From a virus (taxonomy: Duplodnaviria; Caudoviricetes), in IMG/VR virus record IMGVR_UViG_3300037541_000451, positions 1-64,000 of that record: a stretch of 64,000 nt of DNA. One strand, written 5' to 3'. A program made the position numbers and the translations under genes. This document shows positions 22,053 to 58,925 of this stretch, one piece after another. A model generated the notes under the pieces. That model made no database searches. It saw nothing but the letters and a program-made list of their open reading frames with translations, and was not told the origin of the DNA. Within the stretch, counting starts at the first letter, position 1; each line of letters begins with the position of its first letter.

Positions 22053-25000
22053 TTAGCCGACTCCATACCAGCTAAAATCATTTGAAAAACCATCTGGTAT
22101 TTTCTTTAGGATATCATCTCTATTTAAAATATCAGATTCCTTAAGTACCTTTCCACCTACACGTGACTTTCCTGGAATAGGTATTAACCCTAACTCAATT
22201 GCTTCATTTAAATATTTATCATACAGTTCTTTCGAGAGGCCTCTCGCGCGCATTTCTTCTAGAGTTAAAACAATTACATTATTTTTAAGCATTTCAGCAT
22301 ATAGCTGTCTCAAGCCTTTTCTGGCTTCAACCATGTCAGATGCATTCGCGAAGAAAGCATCGTGAATAGTAGAAGTTGGAATTTTATTTTCTTTACCCCA
22401 TAAATGAAATCTTTTTACAATCACAGCATCATTAGAATGGTTTCCGTTAACGGCATAAGCTGTTCTAGCTTTACCTATATCAGCAATATCATTAATCTTT
22501 CCAGACTTATTTATAACTTGTTGCCACCAAGTTGCTTCTGTTTTCTGAGGTATTTGTAAGATATTTGTAGTCCAGTTTCCATATTTGTCCTTGTAAATTA
22601 GTTTTTCTTCGAATGTTTGTGTGAAGTTCTGCTCAATTGTTTTGCCATCAAAGTTTACCCAAGGTACATTAGTCCAACTCTTAGGTAGCTTGTTAGCATA
22701 TAGCACTTCAAATTCTGTAATAGTCTTTAATTCTAAAAACTCTGTTTTTAAATACTTAGCACCTACTCGTCTTGTTTCGGGAGTTTCTACACCATAAATG
22801 ATTTCACTAAGAGTCCCATTAGGCTTCCAAAAACCAAACCTTTTTAATATCTTTTCACTAAGTGGCTCACCAGCTTTTAAGCCAAAAAGTTTGCTAACAC
22901 TATCAGGTAAAACATAACCTTTCTTTTTGGTGCCTAAAAGCTTAATTTTGCTTATTGTTTTCCAATCAAAATCACTATTTGATGGTTTTGCATTGGCTAA
23001 ATAATCTTGTGCTAATCTACCGAAGTATCTGGTAAAATCCTTTAAAATTGGAACTTGTTCACCAAGATACTCACTCATTATTTTTGCGATAGCTTTGAAG
23101 TCCTCTGGAGTAATTACTTTATCATAAGATTTAGTCATTTTTTCAACAAAGTCACGAGTCTTAGGATCTAAGAAATAAAGTTGTTCTAAGATGTCATCTC
23201 CGGGGTCTAAACCTTTATTAAAGATATCTTTTACATTTTGTCTTAATTGCCGTAATTCTTCTGCTGTTTCTTCGTCAAACTTTTCGTATCTTGCTATTCT
23301 AGCAGATATTTCATTTAAAACTTGATCTCTTTCTGATGCTTTTACTACAAGAACATTTTCTTGTTTGTCAAGTATTTTTGCAAGTTTACCTTCAACATTT
23401 AATGCGCCTGTTCTTTCACCAGCGCCATAGAACGTCCATTAAAGATAGGAGTAGCCTTGATCACCACGTTTAATACGTTTAGTGATAGTAGAATGATTAA
23501 TGCCAAGCATTCTACCGGCTTCACGCGTTGATTCAAATATGCCAAACGGAGTGGAAACTGCTTTTCGTAAATGATGTGCGTTTCTTCCATCTGCCTCTTT
23601 ACCTTGAATTACTTCATCTTTCCAGTAATAACCTTTATGTAATATACTCTTGCTACCAGCTTTTCTAGAAATGACTGCTTTAACAACTTTATGTGCTTTT
23701 GCCGCAGCCGCAACAGTCGGGAATTCACCTAAAGGAGTAATTACAGCTCTTGCTAGTAATGAGTTATCACCACTAACAGCTTCTTTAGCTAATTGATACA
23801 TTAATGGTGATAGTTTAACGCCATCTCTAGAGCACATTGTTGCATATGCTACTTTTAAACCTTTTACTTCTGGGAAAGCTTTCATTAATAACCAATGAGC
23901 AAGTAAGTGACATCTCGCGTTCAGATAAATTAAGTTTGATGAATCGTCACCGCCATCCATACATTTTGGAATAATATGATGACGCTCATAATAACTTTTT
24001 AATGGCTTTAGTTGGAAGCCGTGTTTTTCAATTAAAGCCAAATAATGCTTTTCGTAATCCATTTTAACTCCTAATGTATATTACTATACAGATCAGACTA
24101 TATCTTACGTCGTCACCTTTTCAGGATAGTACGTCACCGCGCTTCGGAATTAGCATAATTCCTACGAACTTCATCATCTGGTCTAGATGGTATGTTCTAG
24201 TCGTTGCACCTTCAAAGGTATCCCTACCTAAGCTTGGCTCAGGATTGCCCTTTAAGAAGGGTTTCCCTGAATTCACGGTGTTTATACATGGCAACATTCT
24301 ACCATGTTTTGAGCTTTAGCAGCTTTTCGTAAATCTTTTTCCGAAAGTCCTAATTTTTGATTCAAAAGTCTAAATCTAGGATCGTTGTAAGTTGCAGCTG
24401 CGATTTCGTCGTAAAGTCTTTTCTTTTGATTGGTTGGAATGACATTTGACAGTTCCGCCAATTGTTTATTTCTAGTTGTTAAAGCAATAATCTGAGCACC
24501 AGATGAAGAAGCATCTTGCTCGAGTGCTAATGAAATATCATAATCTTTAAGTCTAGCAAGAGAGTTTCTGCTATAAGAGCCTTCCAGGTAATTATCAATT
24601 TTGGCAGTTTCTAGAGCTAATCTTAAGAATTTATTAAGATCTTCTCCATCGATTTTTTGAAAAATCTCTGATTCTAAAATAGCTCTAATGTCATTAGGCT
24701 TACTTTTAAGCATATGATTTCCAAGTTTTATCATTTCTGGACGCCATTTTGCTGCAATTTTTTGTCTTCCAGTTAAAGTCAATGAGTTATAGTTACCTTC
24801 AAAGTAATCACTTAGTCCACCTAAAAAAGATCCAATTTGATCTTGCAAATTATAAAAACCTTCTTCACTAAATTTACGTGAAATTTCAGTATTTAAAAAT
24901 GGTCTAAAAGTTTCACCTGATTGAGGACCAATTAAACCACGATCATATATTCTAGCCCGATGGTCTATAAACGGATGGTTGCTAAAAGCTTTATTTTCGG

Positions 25001-27545
25001 CTGTAAGCCACTCCATAGCTTTAATCCGTTCATATGAGTCACCTCTAGAAGCCATATATTTACGATATTCATTTAAGTCATTATACTTCTTAGCCTGACC
25101 TTTATCGTCCTCAAAATATAAAATCTTTTTTACAAAATTAAGATAATCTTTATCAATCTTATATTTACTTTTAGCTGCCCAATTTAAAGCCTCCACAAAG
25201 TCTTTATCAATAAATTCTTCTGGAAAATCACTGAAACTAGAAGTCGATGTTATTGGTATTCTAGTGTCTTCGTAACCTAAAATACCACGATCGATAAAAT
25301 ACGTTTTATAACCTTCTCTAAACACTAATCTATTTTTGTCTTCAGTTACAGAAACACGTAATCCTAATTCAACTTTTCTTACTAATTTAGCGTATTCTTG
25401 TATTCTTGGATCTACAATTCGAATATTATAAGATAATGTATCATAATATGGCCCAAAATAAGCACCACTCATCATACTTTTCATTCTTCTTTTTTGAACA
25501 CCAAAAGTTTCAATTTCAAAGAACTTTTTAACGTTCTTAGCCTCTAAAAGACTCATCCCTAGCTCGTACCATTTACGTCTATTACCATTTATATTAGCAA
25601 GATTATATAAATCACGTCCTAAAGCAACAGCAAATTGATCGCGATCTGGGCTATCAGCAAGGCTTAGCCTGTGAGCAAACTTTAAATAAAATTGTTGTAG
25701 ATCTCTGTCAGAGACTCTGTTTCGAATTATTAAAGGAATTTTGTAATCGAAAACATTGCGTAATTCATTAGCAATTCCAGGGGCTATTTTGTCTTCCCAT
25801 CTGTTTTTCTTTAAAATATTTTCAATAAATTCGTCATGTAATTCTTGCAGTTGAGTGCTTCCCAAAACAGGATCTATGTAATTATCTTGTAAAAGCTTTT
25901 TAAGAAAATCAGAGTCTTTTCGCAGCTGTGTTTCTACGAAATCAGAAACGTTCATAACATCAAACTTGATTTGGCCTTGAACAACTGCTTTAAAGTTAGA
26001 CCAAATTTGATTATTAGATCTGTATCTGCCAAAAATGATTCTTAAGTTATCAGCAACTACGGCACGTTCGTTTATACTCATACGATCTGCTAAAGATTCA
26101 ACAATATCTTTAATAAAGGCTTTATCTCTATCTAATAGTTTTTCACTTTCATCAATGAGTCTAATATTATTTGCTAAAACAGCTGGATTTGGTTGATACA
26201 AACGCACATCTTCGTATCTACCAGTTATAGGGTTAAATTTGAGTTGGTCCTCACGAGGAGGACTAGCTAGAACTCTATTTTTTACACCTCTTTTTACATT
26301 TAATAGAGTACCTCTATAGTTGGTCAAAGACAATGTTCCATTAAGCTCACCAGATTGTAATAAATAATAATCTATTAAGCGTTTCTTTAATTCATCATTT
26401 CCAATAAAATCATCCGGTGTTGATGCACCTAGCTGTAATGCATCTAACTTTTCTTTAGCTAAAGCAAACTTTTTAGTGTCATTTGGTAAGGTGTATCCAC
26501 TATCACTTAAAGCTCTGAGCTCCTTGATTCCAACAGATGCACCGTCTGGTGCTGTAAACCTATCTACAGTAAGCTCTCCGCTACGAAGGAGTTCAACCTT
26601 TTGATAATCACCAAGATGTTTTAATTGGATCTCTTTGGATTGTCTGCTTAACCATGTATTATAAGACTCTCTTAAAGGTGTCTGACCGTCATAATATACA
26701 ATCTGTTCTTTAGTCAAGTTTTCAATATTGCGTTTGCGGACTTGAGCTGCACCTTCTAATTTAGAGATATCATTCCAGTTCTTAAAAACAGGTATTGTTG
26801 TAGATCTACAATGAAAGTGCGCAGGTGGTAAGTGTTTTCTATCATCTATCGGATAAATATTTCCATCACGATGTGCACATAAAGGAGTGGTTCTAGAATC
26901 TAAAACAGCTACATATTGCCAGCCTTGTAAAGCTTTTTCGTTAGCTTTATAGACTTCTTGATCTGTTTGTGCAGTAACGGATGTAACTGCTGTTACAACT
27001 AAAGCTCTAGACTGAGATCTGGTAATGCTGTGAATATTATTCTTACGAACATCTAAAGCAATTTCATCAATTGTTTTATTATCTGCAATACCTTTTCTAA
27101 TTACTGCTTCTAGTCTCTTTCTTTCACTTTCACCAACTCCACCCCAACCTTGTAACAAAGTTCTATCGTTAAAAAGCGGTCTTTCTAAAACAATTTCTTC
27201 AGCAACTCTTTTGGCAGGTCGTTCTGCTCTCCAAATCTTACCCATAGATGTTTCTATGGTTTGATAGGTATAAGAGAGCTGATCTGATACTAAGTCTAGT
27301 AAAGATCTTTTTGAAATGCTATAAGCTTCTCTATAAGTTTTTTGTAGTTCTTGATCAATAGCTTCACGAAGTTTTTCAAAGCCTTTTTGAGATAAACTTG
27401 CTTCTCTTATTAGCTTATCCACTCTTACTTCGTGGCCGTCAATTACAAGTGATACTTTGTTATTTAATCTTTTTTCGTACAAGCGGATCATTGCCGCTCG
27501 ATCAATGGTTCTATCATATATGTCTGTATTCGCATTGTTAGCCAT
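22053..27545 (-). CDS. MuF/gp7 head-morphogenesis domain fused to a T7-like RNA polymerase; exons 27545-24301 and 23436-22053, 1542 aa after splicing
   Basis: MuF: WQYVAVLDSRTTPLC...PPAHFHCRST. RNAP: DHRARIY, motif A QDASSSGAQII, motif B RKAAKAQNMV|TFYG across the intron, motif C HSND...IHDAF. Confidence 0.9.
23437..24300 (-). mobile_element. group I intron (864 nt) in RNAP motif B
   Basis: 5' exon ends in U and pairs with the IGS (ACAUGGU/GCCAUGU); P10 AGAAUGUU/GACGUUCU; core strings AATTCAGGGAAAC, GGCAATCCTGAGCCAAG, GTGCAACGACTA, AAGATATAGTCT; terminal G; removal restores the frame. Confidence 0.9.
23439..24062 (-). CDS. intron-encoded HNH homing endonuclease
   Basis: ERHHIIPKCMDGGDDSSNL...H...H; two C-terminal NUMOD1-like repeats (TPLGEFPTV, TPFGIFEST). 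Confidence 0.88.
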   Translation of the reverse strand: MDYEKHYLALIEKHGFQLKPLKSYYERHHIIPKCMDGGDDSSNLIYLNARCHLLAHWLLMKAFPEVKGLKVAYATMCSRDGVKLSPLMYQLAKEAVSGDNSLLARAVITPLGEFPTVAAAAKAHKVVKAVISRKAGSKSILHKGYYWKDEVIQGKEADGRNAHHLRKAVSTPFGIFESTREAGRMLGINHSTITKRIKRGDQGYSYL

Positions 27546-54534: not shown

Positions 54535-54611
54535 TGGTCTGCCCAAAGGGACTCGAACCCCTAACCTACTCCTTAGAAGGGAGTTGCTCTATCCAATTGA
54601 GCTATGGGCAG
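54535..54611 (-). tRNA. tRNA-Arg(TCT)
   Basis: Full cloverleaf; anticodon stem ACTCC/GGAGT, loop CTTCTAA; encoded CCA. Confidence 0.92.
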
Positions 54612-54626
54612 ATATATTAATTTTTA

Positions 54627-54896
54627 TTAAATTTCACGAGTATCTTTAGTTCTTGCTTTAATAAATTTTAAAATATCACCTCGATGTACTTTTCCTAAAT
54701 ACTGAAACTTTTTTCTACTAGGCCAGTAATCAAGACGTCTTTCATTAAGCATTCGCGACCAATGATACTCGGTATGTTTTGTCCATTTACCATCATCGTC
54801 TTGAATAGCTTGTTCTAAGAATTTCTTTCTATCGGCATCGAACTTTTCCTTGGAGTGTTCTTTCAAGATATCCCAAATAGGATCTTTATCATTCAT
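54627..54896 (-). CDS. hypothetical protein
   Basis: RLDYWPSRKKF pattern. Confidence 0.7.
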   Translation of the reverse strand: MNDKDPIWDILKEHSKEKFDADRKKFLEQAIQDDDGKWTKHTEYHWSRMLNERRLDYWPSRKKFQYLGKVHRGDILKFIKARTKDTREI

Positions 54897-55233
54897 GTAC
54901 AGAAACCTCTCGAATATGCCAATTAATTATACTCCAGTAGGATTCTAAAGATTGATACATTCCACTATATTGCTTACAATGTTCTTGGCTTAATGTTATC
55001 AAAATTTCCTGAGCATCTTCTTTACTTGTAAGAACAGCTGTCTTGACAAGATCATTAGTACAAATTAAGTATACTGTTTTAGTTTTATTCTGAGATGAAA
55101 AATTTTCAACCTTTCTTTCTAGATTGCGAACGCGATGTTCAAGCTTGTTAAAAACAGATAAAGGAACTTTTTGTTCCATAGACTGCACATGCTCAATATA
55201 TTCTTTAGTAGGAACTAAGCGAGTCATTACCAT
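54889..55233 (-). CDS. hypothetical protein, paralog of 52326-52688
   Basis: See the paralog entry. Confidence 0.65.
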   Translation of the reverse strand: MVMTRLVPTKEYIEHVQSMEQKVPLSVFNKLEHRVRNLERKVENFSSQNKTKTVYLICTNDLVKTAVLTSKEDAQEILITLSQEHCKQYSGMYQSLESYWSIINWHIREVSVHE

Positions 55234-55502
55234 TTCACCTTATCAGCCCAATATGCTGCACTCATTTTGCCCTTAGCAATGTTCTCAGCGTGGCGAGCTT
55301 TAAAAGATTCTCTACGAGCTTTGTAAGCTTCTGATTCACCTTCTTTAGGCGGTGAGCCTTTCACACCTTGAGCACCAAATCTGATAAGCTTTACTGCTTC
55401 ACCTTCCTTGGCTAATACAGCATGGCTTTTTGTTGGATGATCTGGAGTTCTTTTAGGATCGTTATAACCCTCAAAAGTTTCTCCTCGATATGTGATACTC
55501 AT
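55227..55502 (-). CDS. conserved phage protein (DUF6321-like)
   Basis: KLIRFGAQG...RRESFKARH...SAAYWADKVKW. Confidence 0.75.
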   Translation of the reverse strand: MSITYRGETFEGYNDPKRTPDHPTKSHAVLAKEGEAVKLIRFGAQGVKGSPPKEGESEAYKARRESFKARHAENIAKGKMSAAYWADKVKW

Positions 55503-55804
55503 AAAAACTCCTCACACTCAATTACTTTAATACCTGCTTCTTTGATTGCTAACAAACAAATACTGCAAGGTTTCATCAACTTTAATTCAGTACGATTTTG
55601 TTTTTCAATTCTAATCTTATGAATAGGTTTACCTTTTGCACGAATTATCGCCAATATCTCTGCATGAAGATATATACGATAGTCTTGGTCTGTTTTAGAC
55701 GCATGCCTTGCTTGAATAGGATGCGTTTTAGTGTATGAATTCTTAGCAATAGAAATCACTCTACCACGCTTATCGTAAGTAGTAGCTCTTATATCAGACT
55801 TCAT
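55499..55804 (-). CDS. zinc-dependent cytidine/dCMP deaminase-fold protein
   Basis: HAE...PCxxC. Confidence 0.8.
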   Translation of the reverse strand: MKSDIRATTYDKRGRVISIAKNSYTKTHPIQARHASKTDQDYRIYLHAEILAIIRAKGKPIHKIRIEKQNRTELKLMKPCSICLLAIKEAGIKVIECEEFL

Positions 55805-56312
55805 TGGCTTGGTCTTTAGCGAGCTTATAAAGTTTGTTAAATCGATTTGACAGGACTCTGATATTAGTCAAAGCAACCTTTGAATTTTCTGTATCATAAA
55901 AAGCCCAACGACCTGTTTCTAATTCGAATTCAACAGGAATTGCATTTGGTGATTTGTAATAAAAGAATTTAATTCGAAAGGTTTTGGCAAGTGTGTGATC
56001 TACAGAAATAGGGATAGAATTTACAATATCTTGAAATTCCAAAACTGTTATCAGCTTAGAATTCCATACCACTTCATTCTTTGAATCTAGAATTTCGAAA
56101 CAAACACGCAGTCTATCTTTAAAAAGTTCTTGAACTGTAGATTCTTCCGGCTTCCGTAAATTTACAATAGTCAGTTCACCCGTATTCATATCTACAGCGA
56201 ACGATCGGCCAGATGTAATTACATCGTGAACCATATCACTTTGAAATAGTTTCTTTACGGGCTTTACAATCATGAAAACACGATTGTTAATAGTCACAAA
56301 CTTTCGTTCCAT
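55794..56312 (-). CDS. hypothetical protein
   Basis: ORF track. Confidence 0.65.
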   Translation of the reverse strand: MERKFVTINNRVFMIVKPVKKLFQSDMVHDVITSGRSFAVDMNTGELTIVNLRKPEESTVQELFKDRLRVCFEILDSKNEVVWNSKLITVLEFQDIVNSIPISVDHTLAKTFRIKFFYYKSPNAIPVEFELETGRWAFYDTENSKVALTNIRVLSNRFNKLYKLAKDQANEV

Positions 56313-56347
56313 TTTAAGCTTTCTAAGATAAAATTATTTGCGTTTAA

Positions 56348-56473
56348 AACCGTACATATAAGTCAGCTGCCTTGTACTGTTTTGATAAGTCTTGTTGGCC
56401 AGACGACTTATCCTCAATCACGACTTGGTCCTTCGTCGCGAGCTTACAAAGCAGCTGAATTATATGTACGGTT
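56348..56473 (-). ncRNA. candidate three-way-junction RNA
   Basis: 29-nt inverted repeat enclosing two hairpins, 7 nt downstream of tRNA-Leu. Confidence 0.5.
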
Positions 56474-56480
56474 AAATAAA

Positions 56481-56569
56481 TGGTGCCCGGAGCGGGGATC
56501 GAACCCGCACGACGTTTTATTGCCGACGGATTTTAAGTCCGTTGTGTCTACCGATTTCACCATCCGGGC
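56481..56569 (-). tRNA. tRNA-Leu(TAA)
   Basis: Class II cloverleaf with long variable arm; anticodon loop CTTAAAA; CCA. Confidence 0.93.
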
Positions 56570-56577
56570 TAAGTTAA

Positions 56578-56949
56578 TTAATCGTTAATGATATATTCTT
56601 GAAATTCTTCTGGAATTATTACATTTGAAGGTGATCCTGCAAACATCGGACCAATTTGATCCGGAGTAAAACCAGCTAAACCACAGCCAATGGGAGTTAG
56701 TTTAAATTTGAGATGACTTCTTGACTTAGCAAATTCTTTGAATTTTTCAACATGTTGCGCAATTTCGTCTAACGTTAAACTTTTATACGGCGTTGATTTC
56801 GTAGGAATAGCATAAGAAGCACCTTGAAGTCCTTCTCCAACGCCTAACTTAGCTCCATATCTTTCCAAAGCTGTTTTAGCTGATCCAGCTCCGTGAATAC
56901 CTTGACGATTACTTCCAAATACAAAAATCGTATCGGTAAGTTTTTTCAT
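56578..56949 (-). CDS. FVFGSN-family protein (possibly macro-domain-like)
   Basis: FVFGSNRQGIHGAG...SYAIPTK...TPIGCGLAG; fold assignment from memory, uncertain. Confidence 0.55.
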   Translation of the reverse strand: MKKLTDTIFVFGSNRQGIHGAGSAKTALERYGAKLGVGEGLQGASYAIPTKSTPYKSLTLDEIAQHVEKFKEFAKSRSHLKFKLTPIGCGLAGFTPDQIGPMFAGSPSNVIIPEEFQEYIIND

Positions 56950-57120
56950 TTAGGTTGTAGCTAGCTCCAACTCGAGTTTGTCAAGTGTTTCCTTAAGCTC
57001 TTCTCGCGATTTTAAGAAAAGGTCGTAATTATGCCCCTTGAAATCAGTTGCAGCGACAGCCATTGCATCAGCTAATTCTAGGATATGTTGTTTTTCTTGT
57101 TTTAGTTGACCTGAATCCAT
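56950..57120 (-). CDS. small hypothetical protein (56 aa)
   Basis: SD AAAGGA; MDSGQLKQEKQHILELADAMAV... Confidence 0.6.
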   Translation of the reverse strand: MDSGQLKQEKQHILELADAMAVAATDFKGHNYDLFLKSREELKETLDKLELELATT

Positions 57121-57187
57121 ATTATCTTCCTTTATAGCTGAGATATATCAGCCACGCGTGCTACCCATTCAGCTTATAAAGGTAAAT

Positions 57188-57379
57188 TCAGTAGTCTACT
57201 TGAAAATCATCCATATCATCTTTTAGACAACTGTTACAAATACTATACTTATTTGTAATAGGGAGTTTAGCACCACAGACACAAATCATATTTAATTGTC
57301 TGCCGGTCTCTGAATCGTAGTCTGGGCAACAGCCCAACTCGTGTCCGCAACAAGGAAAATCTTCACATCTAGCGGCCAT
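57188..57379 (-). CDS. small Cys-rich (Zn-binding) protein
   Basis: CEDFPCCGH, CC, CxC, CxxC. Confidence 0.65.
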   Translation of the reverse strand: MAARCEDFPCCGHELGCCPDYDSETGRQLNMICVCGAKLPITNKYSICNSCLKDDMDDFQVDY

Positions 57380-57416
57380 AAGTGTCCTTAAATAAATTGT
57401 TTAAAAATCTATCATA

Positions 57417-57492
57417 TGGCTCCACGACCTGGATTCGAACCAGGGACCAACAAATTAACAGTCTGCTGCTCTACCGACTGAGCTATCGTGGA
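57417..57492 (-). tRNA. tRNA-Asn(GTT)
   Basis: Cloverleaf; anticodon loop CTGTTAA; CCA. Confidence 0.92.
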
Positions 57493-57668
57493 ACAGTTTC
57501 TAATAGTGCGCCTACAATTGTTCTTTCAATCTCAGCAAAAATTTTATGTTTGTTTACATTATCCTTAAGATTGTTTTCAAGTCTGAGACAAATGCATTCT
57601 GAATACATTATAGCTTTTCGATATAATATATAGTCTAATGTCTTAAGTTGTGAATGTAGATCTTGCAT
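57483..57668 (-). CDS. hypothetical protein
   Basis: ORF track; the 3' end overlaps tRNA-Asn. Confidence 0.4.
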   Translation of the reverse strand: MQDLHSQLKTLDYILYRKAIMYSECICLRLENNLKDNVNKHKIFAEIERTIVGALLETVPR

Positions 57669-57674
57669 AGTTAA

Positions 57675-57750
57675 TGGTGCCGCTTATCTGACTCGAACAG
57701 ATGACCTACCGATTACAAATCGGTTGCTCTACCAACTGAGCTAAAGCGGC
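57675..57750 (-). tRNA. tRNA-Thr(TGT)
   Basis: Cloverleaf; anticodon loop TTTGTAA; CCA. Confidence 0.93.
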
Positions 57751-57957
57751 TTAATTTGTTCTCTCAATCTTCCAAAAAGTTGTATTTATAGATTCGTTAA
57801 CTTCTAATGCAAGAACATAATTTTTCCAAAACCACCGATTATCCATCGTAGAACCTCTAACGGTATCTTTACAAGTCAACCAGTCCGGTGCATTAATTTC
57901 ATTAAATTCCAAGATTTTGTTAGAGAAGTATAGATGGGTTGCTTTAAATTCTTTCAT
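57751..57957 (-). CDS. hypothetical protein
   Basis: ORF track. Confidence 0.65.
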   Translation of the reverse strand: MKEFKATHLYFSNKILEFNEINAPDWLTCKDTVRGSTMDNRWFWKNYVLALEVNESINTTFWKIERTN

Positions 57958-57961
57958 ACTT

Positions 57962-58315
57962 TTAAGTCAACGAAATCCGAAGCTTCCGTTGAATTGCAGA
58001 AAGCCTTTTATAAGCATTTTGTAGCTTGTCACGCTTTGAAAAGAATCGATTTTTCTTAGTATTCGAATAGAACTTAATTGCTTCAGATCTTTCTGAATTA
58101 TATTCTTCAAGATCAAGTGTCATTAAATTTAATTGTCCACGAAGCACAGTACGTAGATATTGTGCTTCTTGCTGAGTTAAACTTATTAGAACTTCTGATG
58201 ATAGTTTTGACTCATTCGTTTCAGGTGAATTACGAAAGTTGTTAGCATCAGTAAAAGTCATTTTTTCAATCCATTTATTAAACCAATCGTTTAAAGTATT
58301 CATATTAACTCCCAT
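57962..58315 (-). CDS. hypothetical protein
   Basis: ORF track. Confidence 0.6.
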   Translation of the reverse strand: MGVNMNTLNDWFNKWIEKMTFTDANNFRNSPETNESKLSSEVLISLTQQEAQYLRTVLRGQLNLMTLDLEEYNSERSEAIKFYSNTKKNRFFSKRDKLQNAYKRLSAIQRKLRISLT

Positions 58316-58505
58316 TATAAACTCTATCAGAAATATCTACACCATGAAAATCGGTATAAAACTCTTCATATCTACCTTCGCTACTGCATGAACGCCTATG
58401 TGGACAATCTACATGAGAGCATTCCCATTGAGCAGTAGTTTCAATGTTACTTTTATGGTGAGTCTTTTTCTGACATATAACACAAATAGATTTTTCAGGC
58501 TTCAT
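58305..58505 (-). CDS. small Cys/His-rich protein
   Basis: CxxC...H, CxxxxC. Confidence 0.55.
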   Translation of the reverse strand: MKPEKSICVICQKKTHHKSNIETTAQWECSHVDCPHRRSCSSEGRYEEFYTDFHGVDISDRVYNGS

Positions 58506-58525
58506 TAAAGACTCCTGTAAAAGAA

Positions 58526-58798
58526 TTATTTGTTAAAGCCATTTCTAAGAATTTTTCGAATGCTTTTTTGAATTTTTTCTTTTCTTTTTATTTCTTCTGT
58601 TAAATCACGCTCATATTGTCTATAGTAATTTAGTAACTTAAAAGAATTTTGAACAGAGCTGTCATCTTTGTTTATATAGTCACATTTATGATAATAGTAT
58701 TTTGCCTTATCTCTGGCGCGCTCCTTTTCAATATGGAGCTCATTTAATTGATCTTTTAAGATAGACTCGAAAAATTGCAAAGAGGAATTGTCTAGCAT
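58526..58798 (-). CDS. hypothetical coiled-coil protein
   Basis: SD AGGAG. Confidence 0.65.
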   Translation of the reverse strand: MLDNSSLQFFESILKDQLNELHIEKERARDKAKYYYHKCDYINKDDSSVQNSFKLLNYYRQYERDLTEEIKRKEKIQKSIRKILRNGFNK

Positions 58799-58810
58799 TT
58801 TCGCTCCTAA

Positions 58811-58848
58811 TGGTAGGCCGGGTCGGATTCGAACCGACGGCTAAACGA
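58811..58848 (-). pseudogene. 3' half of a broken tRNA (positions about 39-76)
   Basis: TCGTT-TAGCC-GTCGG TTCGAAT CCGAC-CCGGCCT-A-CCA; its acceptor strand pairs with the 5' half at 59432-59458. Confidence 0.85.
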
Positions 58849-58925
58849 TGGTGAGACCGATGGGACTCGAACCCATAACCCGCATCTTATGAGGATGACG
58901 CTCTAACCGATTGAGCTACAGTCTC
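58849..58925 (-). tRNA. tRNA with CAT anticodon (probably elongator Met)
   Basis: Cloverleaf, loop CTCATAA, CCA; lacks the C4-G69 and C29-G41 pairs linked to TilS recognition in E. coli. Confidence 0.85.

Follow-up and report, generated by a model that had tools for sequence, protein, structure and literature searches.

The subject of this report is an interrupted gene on the minus strand of a 64,000-nucleotide (nt) stretch of viral DNA (Duplodnaviria; Caudoviricetes; positions 1 to 64,000 of IMG/VR record IMGVR_UViG_3300037541_000451), the whole of which we refer to as the window. Three minus-strand frames follow one another at the locus: one of 1087 amino acids (aa; 27545..24282), one of 207 aa (24062..23439) and a stop-to-stop frame of 461 aa (23438..22053), for which the listing of open reading frames (ORFs) offers no start codon near its beginning. 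Here, we propose that the outer two frames belong to the exons of a single gene, encoding a T7-family single-subunit RNA polymerase (RNAP) fused to an N-terminal MuF domain, and that the segment separating the exons (24300..23437) is a group I intron of the IA type, mobile and self-splicing, with an HNH/NUMOD1 endonuclease gene inside it, an intron reading to which we give a probability of roughly 0.9 (Table 1). Joining the exons computationally yields a coding sequence (CDS) of 4629 nt, or 1542 aa, with zero internal stops.

Table 1. Features of the interrupted polymerase gene and its intron, in window coordinates and in order of transcription; polymerase motifs and the intron-less sister allele are listed last.
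Feature	Position	Strand	Description
Exon 1 of the MuF-RNAP gene	24301..27545	minus	MuF domain, linker, N-terminal part of RNAP, motif A, first half of motif B
End of exon 1			Motif A DASSSGAQ; motif B half RKAAKAQNM, then GU of the Val codon
P1 exon strand	24301..24307	minus	ACAUGGU, pairs with GCCAUGU at 24292..24286; 7 base pairs, the last U forming U.G at the 5' splice site
Group I intron	23437..24300	minus	864 nt; opens directly behind the 5' splice-site U and closes with the terminal G
Internal guide sequence	24286..24300	minus	Intron nt 1-8 AGAAUGUU (P10 strand), nt 9-15 GCCAUGU (P1 strand)
In-frame UAA	24282..24284	minus	Ends the unspliced reading 6 codons into the intron; UAUAAA string kept in all copies
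Ribozyme core	24075..24280	minus	P3, P4-P5, P6, P7 (pseudoknot), P7.1, P7.2, P8, P9 with GUAA loop
Closing stem, 5' strand	24067..24073	minus	UAGGAGU, intron nt 228-234; also the predicted endonuclease Shine-Dalgarno
Putative homing endonuclease ORF	23439..24062	minus	207 aa plus stop; N-terminal HNH, C-terminal NUMOD1-type helix-turn-helix repeats
Closing stem, 3' strand	23446..23452	minus	ACUCCUA, intron nt 849-855; Tyr-Ser codons of the C-terminal GYSY; 9 nt before the 3' splice site
Terminal (omega) G	23437..23437	minus	G before exon 2 in 15/15 same-site copies
P10 exon strand	23429..23436	minus	GACGUUCU; third base of Val, Thr, Phe, first base of Tyr
Exon 2 of the MuF-RNAP gene	22053..23436	minus	Second half of motif B (TFYGAG), NGNHSND, motif C (IHDAFF), C-terminus
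Expected spliced mRNA junction			...AACAUGGU joined to GACGUUC
Upstream polymerase motif			DHRARIYDRG...PQSGE (T7: DWRGRVY...PQGND)
Motif A			LEQDASSSGAQ (T7: LAFDGSCSGIQ); catalytic Asp present
Motif C			NGNHSNDA...TIHDAFF (T7: NFVHSQDG...LIHDSFG); catalytic Asp present
Intron-less allele L003			Uninterrupted insertion region around AACATGGTTACATTT

The interrupted polymerase gene and its junction

Exon 1 ends ...CAA AAC AUG GU at 24301 and exon 2 opens G ACG UUC UAU GGC at 23436, and 24300..23437 is the only placement of the intron that has U at the 5' site, G at the 3' end and a preserved frame. Across the junction the spliced protein reads ...RKAAKAQNMVTFYGAGERTG..., to which the 1463-aa 'minor head protein-like protein' of phage DSS3_VP1 aligns without a gap (it reads KGAKAANMVTFYGAGAAT, and NMVTFYGAG is present in both); NMV/TFYGAG is also gap-free against the uninterrupted alleles from IMG/VR. 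As judged from the motif alignment, the intron interrupts the O-helix (motif B) inside a Val codon, between the equivalents of T7 K631 and Y639. An original prediction, made from the letters of the window alone, had placed a group I intron with an HNH ORF in motif B of a MuF-fused single-subunit RNAP and had set its splice sites exactly (AUG GU-intron-G ACG UUC UAU GGC); it agrees with this sole in-frame placement, with the motif alignment and with the Rfam score and covariation described below.

If no splicing took place, the gene would be truly split, with two polypeptides and a free-standing HNH gene between them. This is how the entry for EBPR siphovirus 1 (JF412302) presents the arrangement, listing three separate CDSs and no intron, and the public sequencing runs that contain the stretch are all of DNA and none of RNA. 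However, the break lies inside a codon within the O-helix, exon 2 has neither a start codon nor a ribosome-binding site at the junction, and the group I covariation, including that of P1 and P10 with the exon ends, would have no reason to persist in an RNA that is never spliced. We regard a truly split gene as highly improbable.

With respect to the host gene, a Pfam scan places PF04233 (Phage_Mu_F) in the exon 1 product at residues 145-251 (53 bits), and phrog_241 (head morphogenesis) matches the same exon with E = 2.9e-64. The RNA polymerase family phrog_414 is split colinearly between the exons, profile positions 341-553 falling in exon 1 and 654-789 in exon 2, and exon 2 passes PF00940 (RNA_pol) with 24.2 bits against a cut-off of 22. 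A profile of ten intron-less relatives was colinear with T7 RNAP in a search of PDB sequences, at marginal E-values of about 0.01. Motif B (RKAAKAQNMVTFYG) has an R-x3-K-x3-M-x3-YG spacing identical to that of T7, with the motif B Lys and Tyr both present; their counterparts, and those of the flanking conserved residues, we take to be R627, K631, M635 and Y639-G640 in T7 RNAP numbering. An AlphaFold model of the polymerase domain, made for an intron-less relative (L003) from a 10-sequence alignment, was poor, with a mean predicted local distance difference test (pLDDT) score of 52; in a Foldseek search of PDB with this model, the matches listed, down to rank 47, were all T7 or mitochondrial single-subunit RNAPs, with E down to 1.5e-8 and template-modelling (TM) scores of only 0.29-0.38. 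Classification of the host gene as a T7-family single-subunit RNAP fused to an N-terminal MuF domain is supported by these motif and profile matches.

With MuF, a head-incorporation domain, at its N-terminus, the fused polymerase has an architecture that points to an enzyme packaged in the virion; in DSS3_VP1 the homologous gene is located between the portal and coat genes. Uninterrupted homologues were seen in the dU-DNA roseophages DSS3_VP1 and DSS3_PM1 (Naomviridae; L002, MN602266 21242-25633), where they are annotated just as 'minor head protein-like'. If the RNAP of such a uracil-DNA phage were delivered with the virion, PBS2/AR9 would offer a parallel.

Intron fold, guide sequence and endonuclease

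The Rfam group I intron family (RF00028) matches 24350..24074 on the minus strand over the full-length model, at 75.8 bits against a gathering score of 50 (E = 1.8e-17 for the whole window), and this match is the sole intron hit of the Rfam scan in the 64-kb window. Together with 14 other contigs, the window provides 15 distinct copies of the intron at the same site, 223-884 nt in length, and in every one of them the 5' site follows a U and exon 2 follows a G. Twelve of them (850-884 nt) bear an ORF of ~205 aa, and three, of 223, 261 and 342 nt, are ORF-less. The P, Q, R and S core strings (GAAUUCAGGGAAAC, AAUCCUGAGC, GUGCAACGACUA and AAGAUAUAGUCU), the presence of which had been predicted, were all four located.

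The internal guide sequence provides comparative evidence for the junction from the RNA side. P1 (ACAUGGU/GCCAUGU, 7 bp, with the expected U-G pair at the 5' site) is perfect, at 7/7 pairs, in 12 of the 15 copies. P10, in which exon-2 nt 1-8 pair with intron nt 8-1 (GACGUUCU/AGAAUGUU), had been put at 8 bp and is paired at 8/8 positions in the window; over all copies, 95% of cells are paired in register versus 39-54% when the strands are slid. The wobble base of the Thr codon (exon +4) covaries with intron nt 5, the combination being U-A in seven copies, A-U in six, G.U in one and a mismatch in one. These comparative counts bear out the 8-bp P10, and they show a guide sequence that follows the changes at a synonymous site in the host gene.

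The core structure was drawn on the window copy and then counted on a six-sequence alignment (14 helices, 67 pairs). In this alignment 94.7% of cells are paired, versus 32-45% with partners slid by 1-3 columns, a percentage that is favoured by the window copy being both the source of the structure and a member of the alignment; this matters less for the compensatory counts. Both sides are altered in 31 of the 67 pairs, against 3-9 in the slid controls and 11.8 ± 2.3 in the shuffled ones; none of 500 shuffles gave as many as 31. P7, like most of P1, does not vary and is hence uninformative for covariation. P7.1 and P7.2, which lie between P7 and P3' in a 54-nt insertion relative to the Rfam model, show compensatory changes (helices 9-11), and it is by these two predicted hairpins that the intron is of subgroup IA, the class being assigned at the IA level. 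No P2 is evident in the derived structure, and a search for a promoter or terminator within the intron gave nothing above chance. A chance resemblance to a group I intron is excluded by the Rfam E-value together with the covariation in 15 independent copies.

The ORF within the intron (24062..23439) begins past the P9 hairpin, 3' of S and 5 nt downstream of a GGAG. The last base of its UAA is at 23439, and the terminal G follows two positions on, at 23437; the location after S and the stop just short of the terminal G had been correctly called from the letters. It contains PF01844 (HNH; 25.3 bits against a cut-off of 21.4) and PF07453 (NUMOD1; 25.7 bits against 22.8) and matches phrog_655 (homing endonuclease) with E = 6.5e-29. 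Residues E26, R27, H28, H29, N43, H52 and H56 are invariant in the 12 ORF copies, which are otherwise 36-79% identical. No close solved relative was found for the protein, the best match (E = 0.011) being the HNH of a group II maturase. The domain matches and residue conservation support an intron-encoded HNH homing endonuclease, with its activity predicted.

Two short strings at either end of this ORF, UAGGAGU and ACUCCUA, are perfectly complementary and would form a 7-bp long-range stem. The pairing is kept in 11 of 11 copies of the window's endonuclease clade, as GGAGU/ACUCC in seven and as GGAAU/AUUCC in four, which amounts to a two-sided change across 620 nt. The support for this putative closing stem is comparative.

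In light of these features, how might the intron work? The guide sequence (intron nt 1-15) would pair with both exon ends via P1 and P10, and the 7-bp closing stem (nt 228-234/849-855) would loop out the 620-nt ORF and place the 3' splice site at the core. Splicing, initiated by guanosine, would then join 24301 to 23436 and give an mRNA for the 1542-aa polymerase. Because the 5' strand of the closing stem is at the same time the endonuclease Shine-Dalgarno sequence, the stem would occlude the ribosome-binding site of the endonuclease, and splicing-competent folding and endonuclease translation would be mutually exclusive for each RNA, by analogy with T4 td/I-TevI. The td intron is of the IA type, and the ribosome-binding site of its endonuclease is sequestered in intron structure, which keeps translation apart from splicing; the T4 nrdD/sunY intron has its ORF in the 3' part. 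The td endonuclease is a GIY-YIG enzyme, whereas that of the window is predicted to be HNH, and in the window, unlike T4, the sequestering stem would be made of the ORF's own last codons and would also position the 3' splice site. The endonuclease would nick or cut intron-less alleles in co-infecting relatives, with repair copying the intron in (homing), and the ORF-less derivatives would represent the decay stage of the homing cycle. Thus it is from known systems that we infer catalysis, the activity and target of the endonuclease, and the trade-off between its translation and splicing.

Several observations weigh against this account. No RNA run is found among the 17 public runs that contain the stretch, all of which are lake-water DNA metagenomes, and the polymerase model is of low confidence (mean pLDDT 52, TM 0.29-0.38). 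The intron copy of EBPR siphovirus 1 scores 40.5 bits in Rfam, below the cut-off, and P1 has one U-U mismatch in 3 of the 15 copies. When the whole intron is folded on thermodynamic energies only, the probability of the closing stem is about 15%, and the minimum-energy structure does not contain it.

Distribution and possible further roles

A scan of IMG/VR for the protein pattern of exon 2 gave 48 loci, and one for the DNA pattern of the intron's 5' end gave 19 stretches. Among 36 distinct alleles, 21 are uninterrupted (AAC ATG GTN ACN TTY TAY GG), 14 have an intron at the exact site of the window and one has an intron elsewhere. On a maximum-likelihood tree of exon 2 (first 420 residues), intron status requires 12-13 changes, at least five of which are forced by branches with at least 95% support, and intron status is no more clustered than shuffled labels; the window's own sister allele (L003; 85% aa identity) is intron-less. 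Such sporadic presence and absence is, as far as allele comparison can tell, the pattern of a mobile element gained and lost. No co-conversion gradient is visible in the exon flanks of intron-plus and intron-less neighbours, because the pairs are 10-50% divergent at the DNA level. A megablast of the whole gene against GenBank phages gave no match, and relatives came only from protein and distant searches. Contigs of four lake runs give fragmentary, low-depth cover of the stretch. In one lake metagenome (run X7), a contig has matches to 23212-23238 and to 24301-24341 that are separated by 198 letters of different sequence, as a relative without exactly the 864 nt would, a weak match since its shorter side is 27 nt.

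One role that would add to homing, rather than replace it, is interference: the endonuclease would aid its phage by cutting the essential virion RNAP gene of intron-less co-infecting relatives. Precedent comes from gp210 of the jumbo phage PhiPA3, for which interference has been demonstrated; the gp210 intron sits in the gene for the beta subunit of a multisubunit RNAP (Birkholz et al. 2024, PMC11620839). The endonuclease ORF being intact and conserved in 12 of 12 ORF-bearing copies, the interleaving of intron-plus and intron-less alleles on the tree and, weakly (27 nt on the shorter side), the X7 contig are all consistent with such a role. Against it, the three ORF-less derivatives indicate that the endonuclease is dispensable and decays, as expected of a purely selfish element, and we consider interference possible, though well short of probable. 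More tentative still is the broader picture, drawn by analogy, in which the HNH enzyme would be a weapon among co-occurring lake phages, the stem between the Shine-Dalgarno and the 3' end would allow each transcript either endonuclease synthesis or maturation of the polymerase mRNA, but not both, and the MuF-RNAP gene, with four or more independent intron sites in its catalytic motifs, would be a battleground comparable to that of PhiKZ/PhiPA3 but with a single-subunit enzyme. If this were true, the cuts would fall in the codons for motif B in intron-less relatives, within a gene on which the very earliest minutes of the next infection depend.

The original prediction had also raised a regulatory role, with splicing efficiency setting the ratio of an inactive 1087-aa MuF protein to the 1542-aa active enzyme. 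The unspliced frame (27545..24282) does end six codons into the intron, and, as had been anticipated, it encodes a 1087-aa product that retains the MuF domain and motif A but lacks motif C and the Tyr-Gly of motif B. However, phage group I introns usually have an in-frame stop near their start, the intron is sporadic among close relatives, and ORF-less and ORF-bearing forms share one site. With intron presence so scattered and the closest allele lacking one, a conserved role in regulation is decidedly unlikely, and interference competition is the more plausible extra role of the two for this mobile intron.

Related introns and meaning for the phage family

The closest introns in RNA sequence, by similarity, are those of the Bastille and SPO1 DNA-polymerase genes; intron nt 17-131 of the window are 72.7% identical to the Bastille intron encoding I-BasI (AY256517 710-828). 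Bastille (I-BasI) and SPO1 (I-HmuI) likewise have a group I intron with an HNH ORF in a catalytic motif of a family-A-type polymerase gene, the host gene being for a DNA polymerase there and for an RNA polymerase in the window. The window's endonuclease is not close to I-BasI (BLASTP E = 0.08, in the C-terminal helix-turn-helix region only), and about 90 nt follow I-BasI in Bastille, whereas the window's ORF runs to within 2 nt of the terminal G. In host function, the comparison is with the gp210 intron of PhiPA3 (PMC11620839), likewise an HNH group I intron near the catalytic residues of a phage RNAP whose homologue is virion-packaged. PhiPA3 differs in being a nucleus-forming jumbo phage with a multisubunit beta/beta'-type polymerase, whereas the window has a single-subunit T7-type enzyme fused to MuF, and interference competition, demonstrated for PhiPA3, is proposed for the window by analogy. 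EBPR siphovirus 1 (JF412302) has the same gene (59.6% aa identity) with an intron at the same site (68% nt identity) and a related endonuclease (72% aa identity); its annotation reads gp47 'head protein', gp48 'HNH endonuclease' and gp49 'hypothetical protein', with no intron.

Further insertions were observed in the same gene of related phages. A second intron family lies 11 nt upstream of the window's site (L010:1690-1956, L011:2068-2334 and L030:1283-1573), with its 5' site following AAGGCU and with AAGGCU/GGCCUU as its P1. It has an HNH ORF in L010 and L011 and is ORF-less, at about 271 nt, in L030; in both versions an A, in place of a G, stands directly ahead of exon 2 (CAAAAC or CAAAAU), and no in-frame terminal G yields a colinear protein. 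At a third site, after ...KRRLY between motifs A and B, L029:1777-2136 (also L027 and L045) scores 68 bits in Rfam and is followed by a different ORF of 230 aa (L029:2137-2826). The fourth site (L054:3491-3714; Rfam 62 bits) comes directly after AVNGNHS, which we take to correspond to the region of H784 in T7, shortly ahead of motif C, and an HNH-type ORF follows; the same contig also holds the 261-nt ORF-less intron at the window's site. A different type of insertion is seen in L033:2233-3333 and L039:2287-3387, where ~230 aa beginning ...PAKP.EVKVTEGLL.ERQDSAGLL are inserted in the fingers region, 24 residues past TFYGAG; an intron was considered for this ~690-nt segment downstream of motif B and rejected, the segment being an in-frame 230-aa protein insert.

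Outside the polymerase gene, intron nt 16-131 match (77%) an unannotated gap between split large terminase fragments in several Vibrio phages (L070, qdvp001, KT932418 63559-63673), and this gap looks like a related unannotated group I intron. Elsewhere in the window, five tRNA genes lie on the minus strand at 54538-58925 (Rfam RF00005, 60-74 bits).

The searchable literature yielded no description of a phage single-subunit RNAP gene interrupted by a group I intron. The Naomviridae paper does not mention a MuF-RNAP fusion, an intron in it or an RNA polymerase (PMC8323127), and a survey of polyvalent proteins describes neither a MuF-RNAP fusion nor an intron in one (PMC5512222). The expectation that a single-subunit RNAP is an uncommon host gene holds in this respect. 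It does not hold within the phage clade itself, where the MuF-RNAP gene is, on the insertions mapped in these contigs, a hot spot for introns, with insertions at no fewer than four sites. The new aspect is the host gene, the intron type itself being canonical and the mechanism textbook, so that the value of the finding lies mainly in annotation and comparison.

The gene model of the locus is corrected from two frames and an 'HNH gene' to one gene for a 1542-aa polymerase plus a mobile intron, and the sole GenBank relative with this arrangement, EBPR siphovirus 1, carries an annotation as three unrelated genes. The 15 natural variants provide a covariation data set for a P10 that tracks a synonymous codon position and for a stem that would couple endonuclease translation to 3' splice-site placement. 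Thus, single-subunit RNA polymerases join the phage genes colonised by group I introns, and a little-described family of MuF-fused, presumably virion-delivered polymerases would be a hot spot for them.

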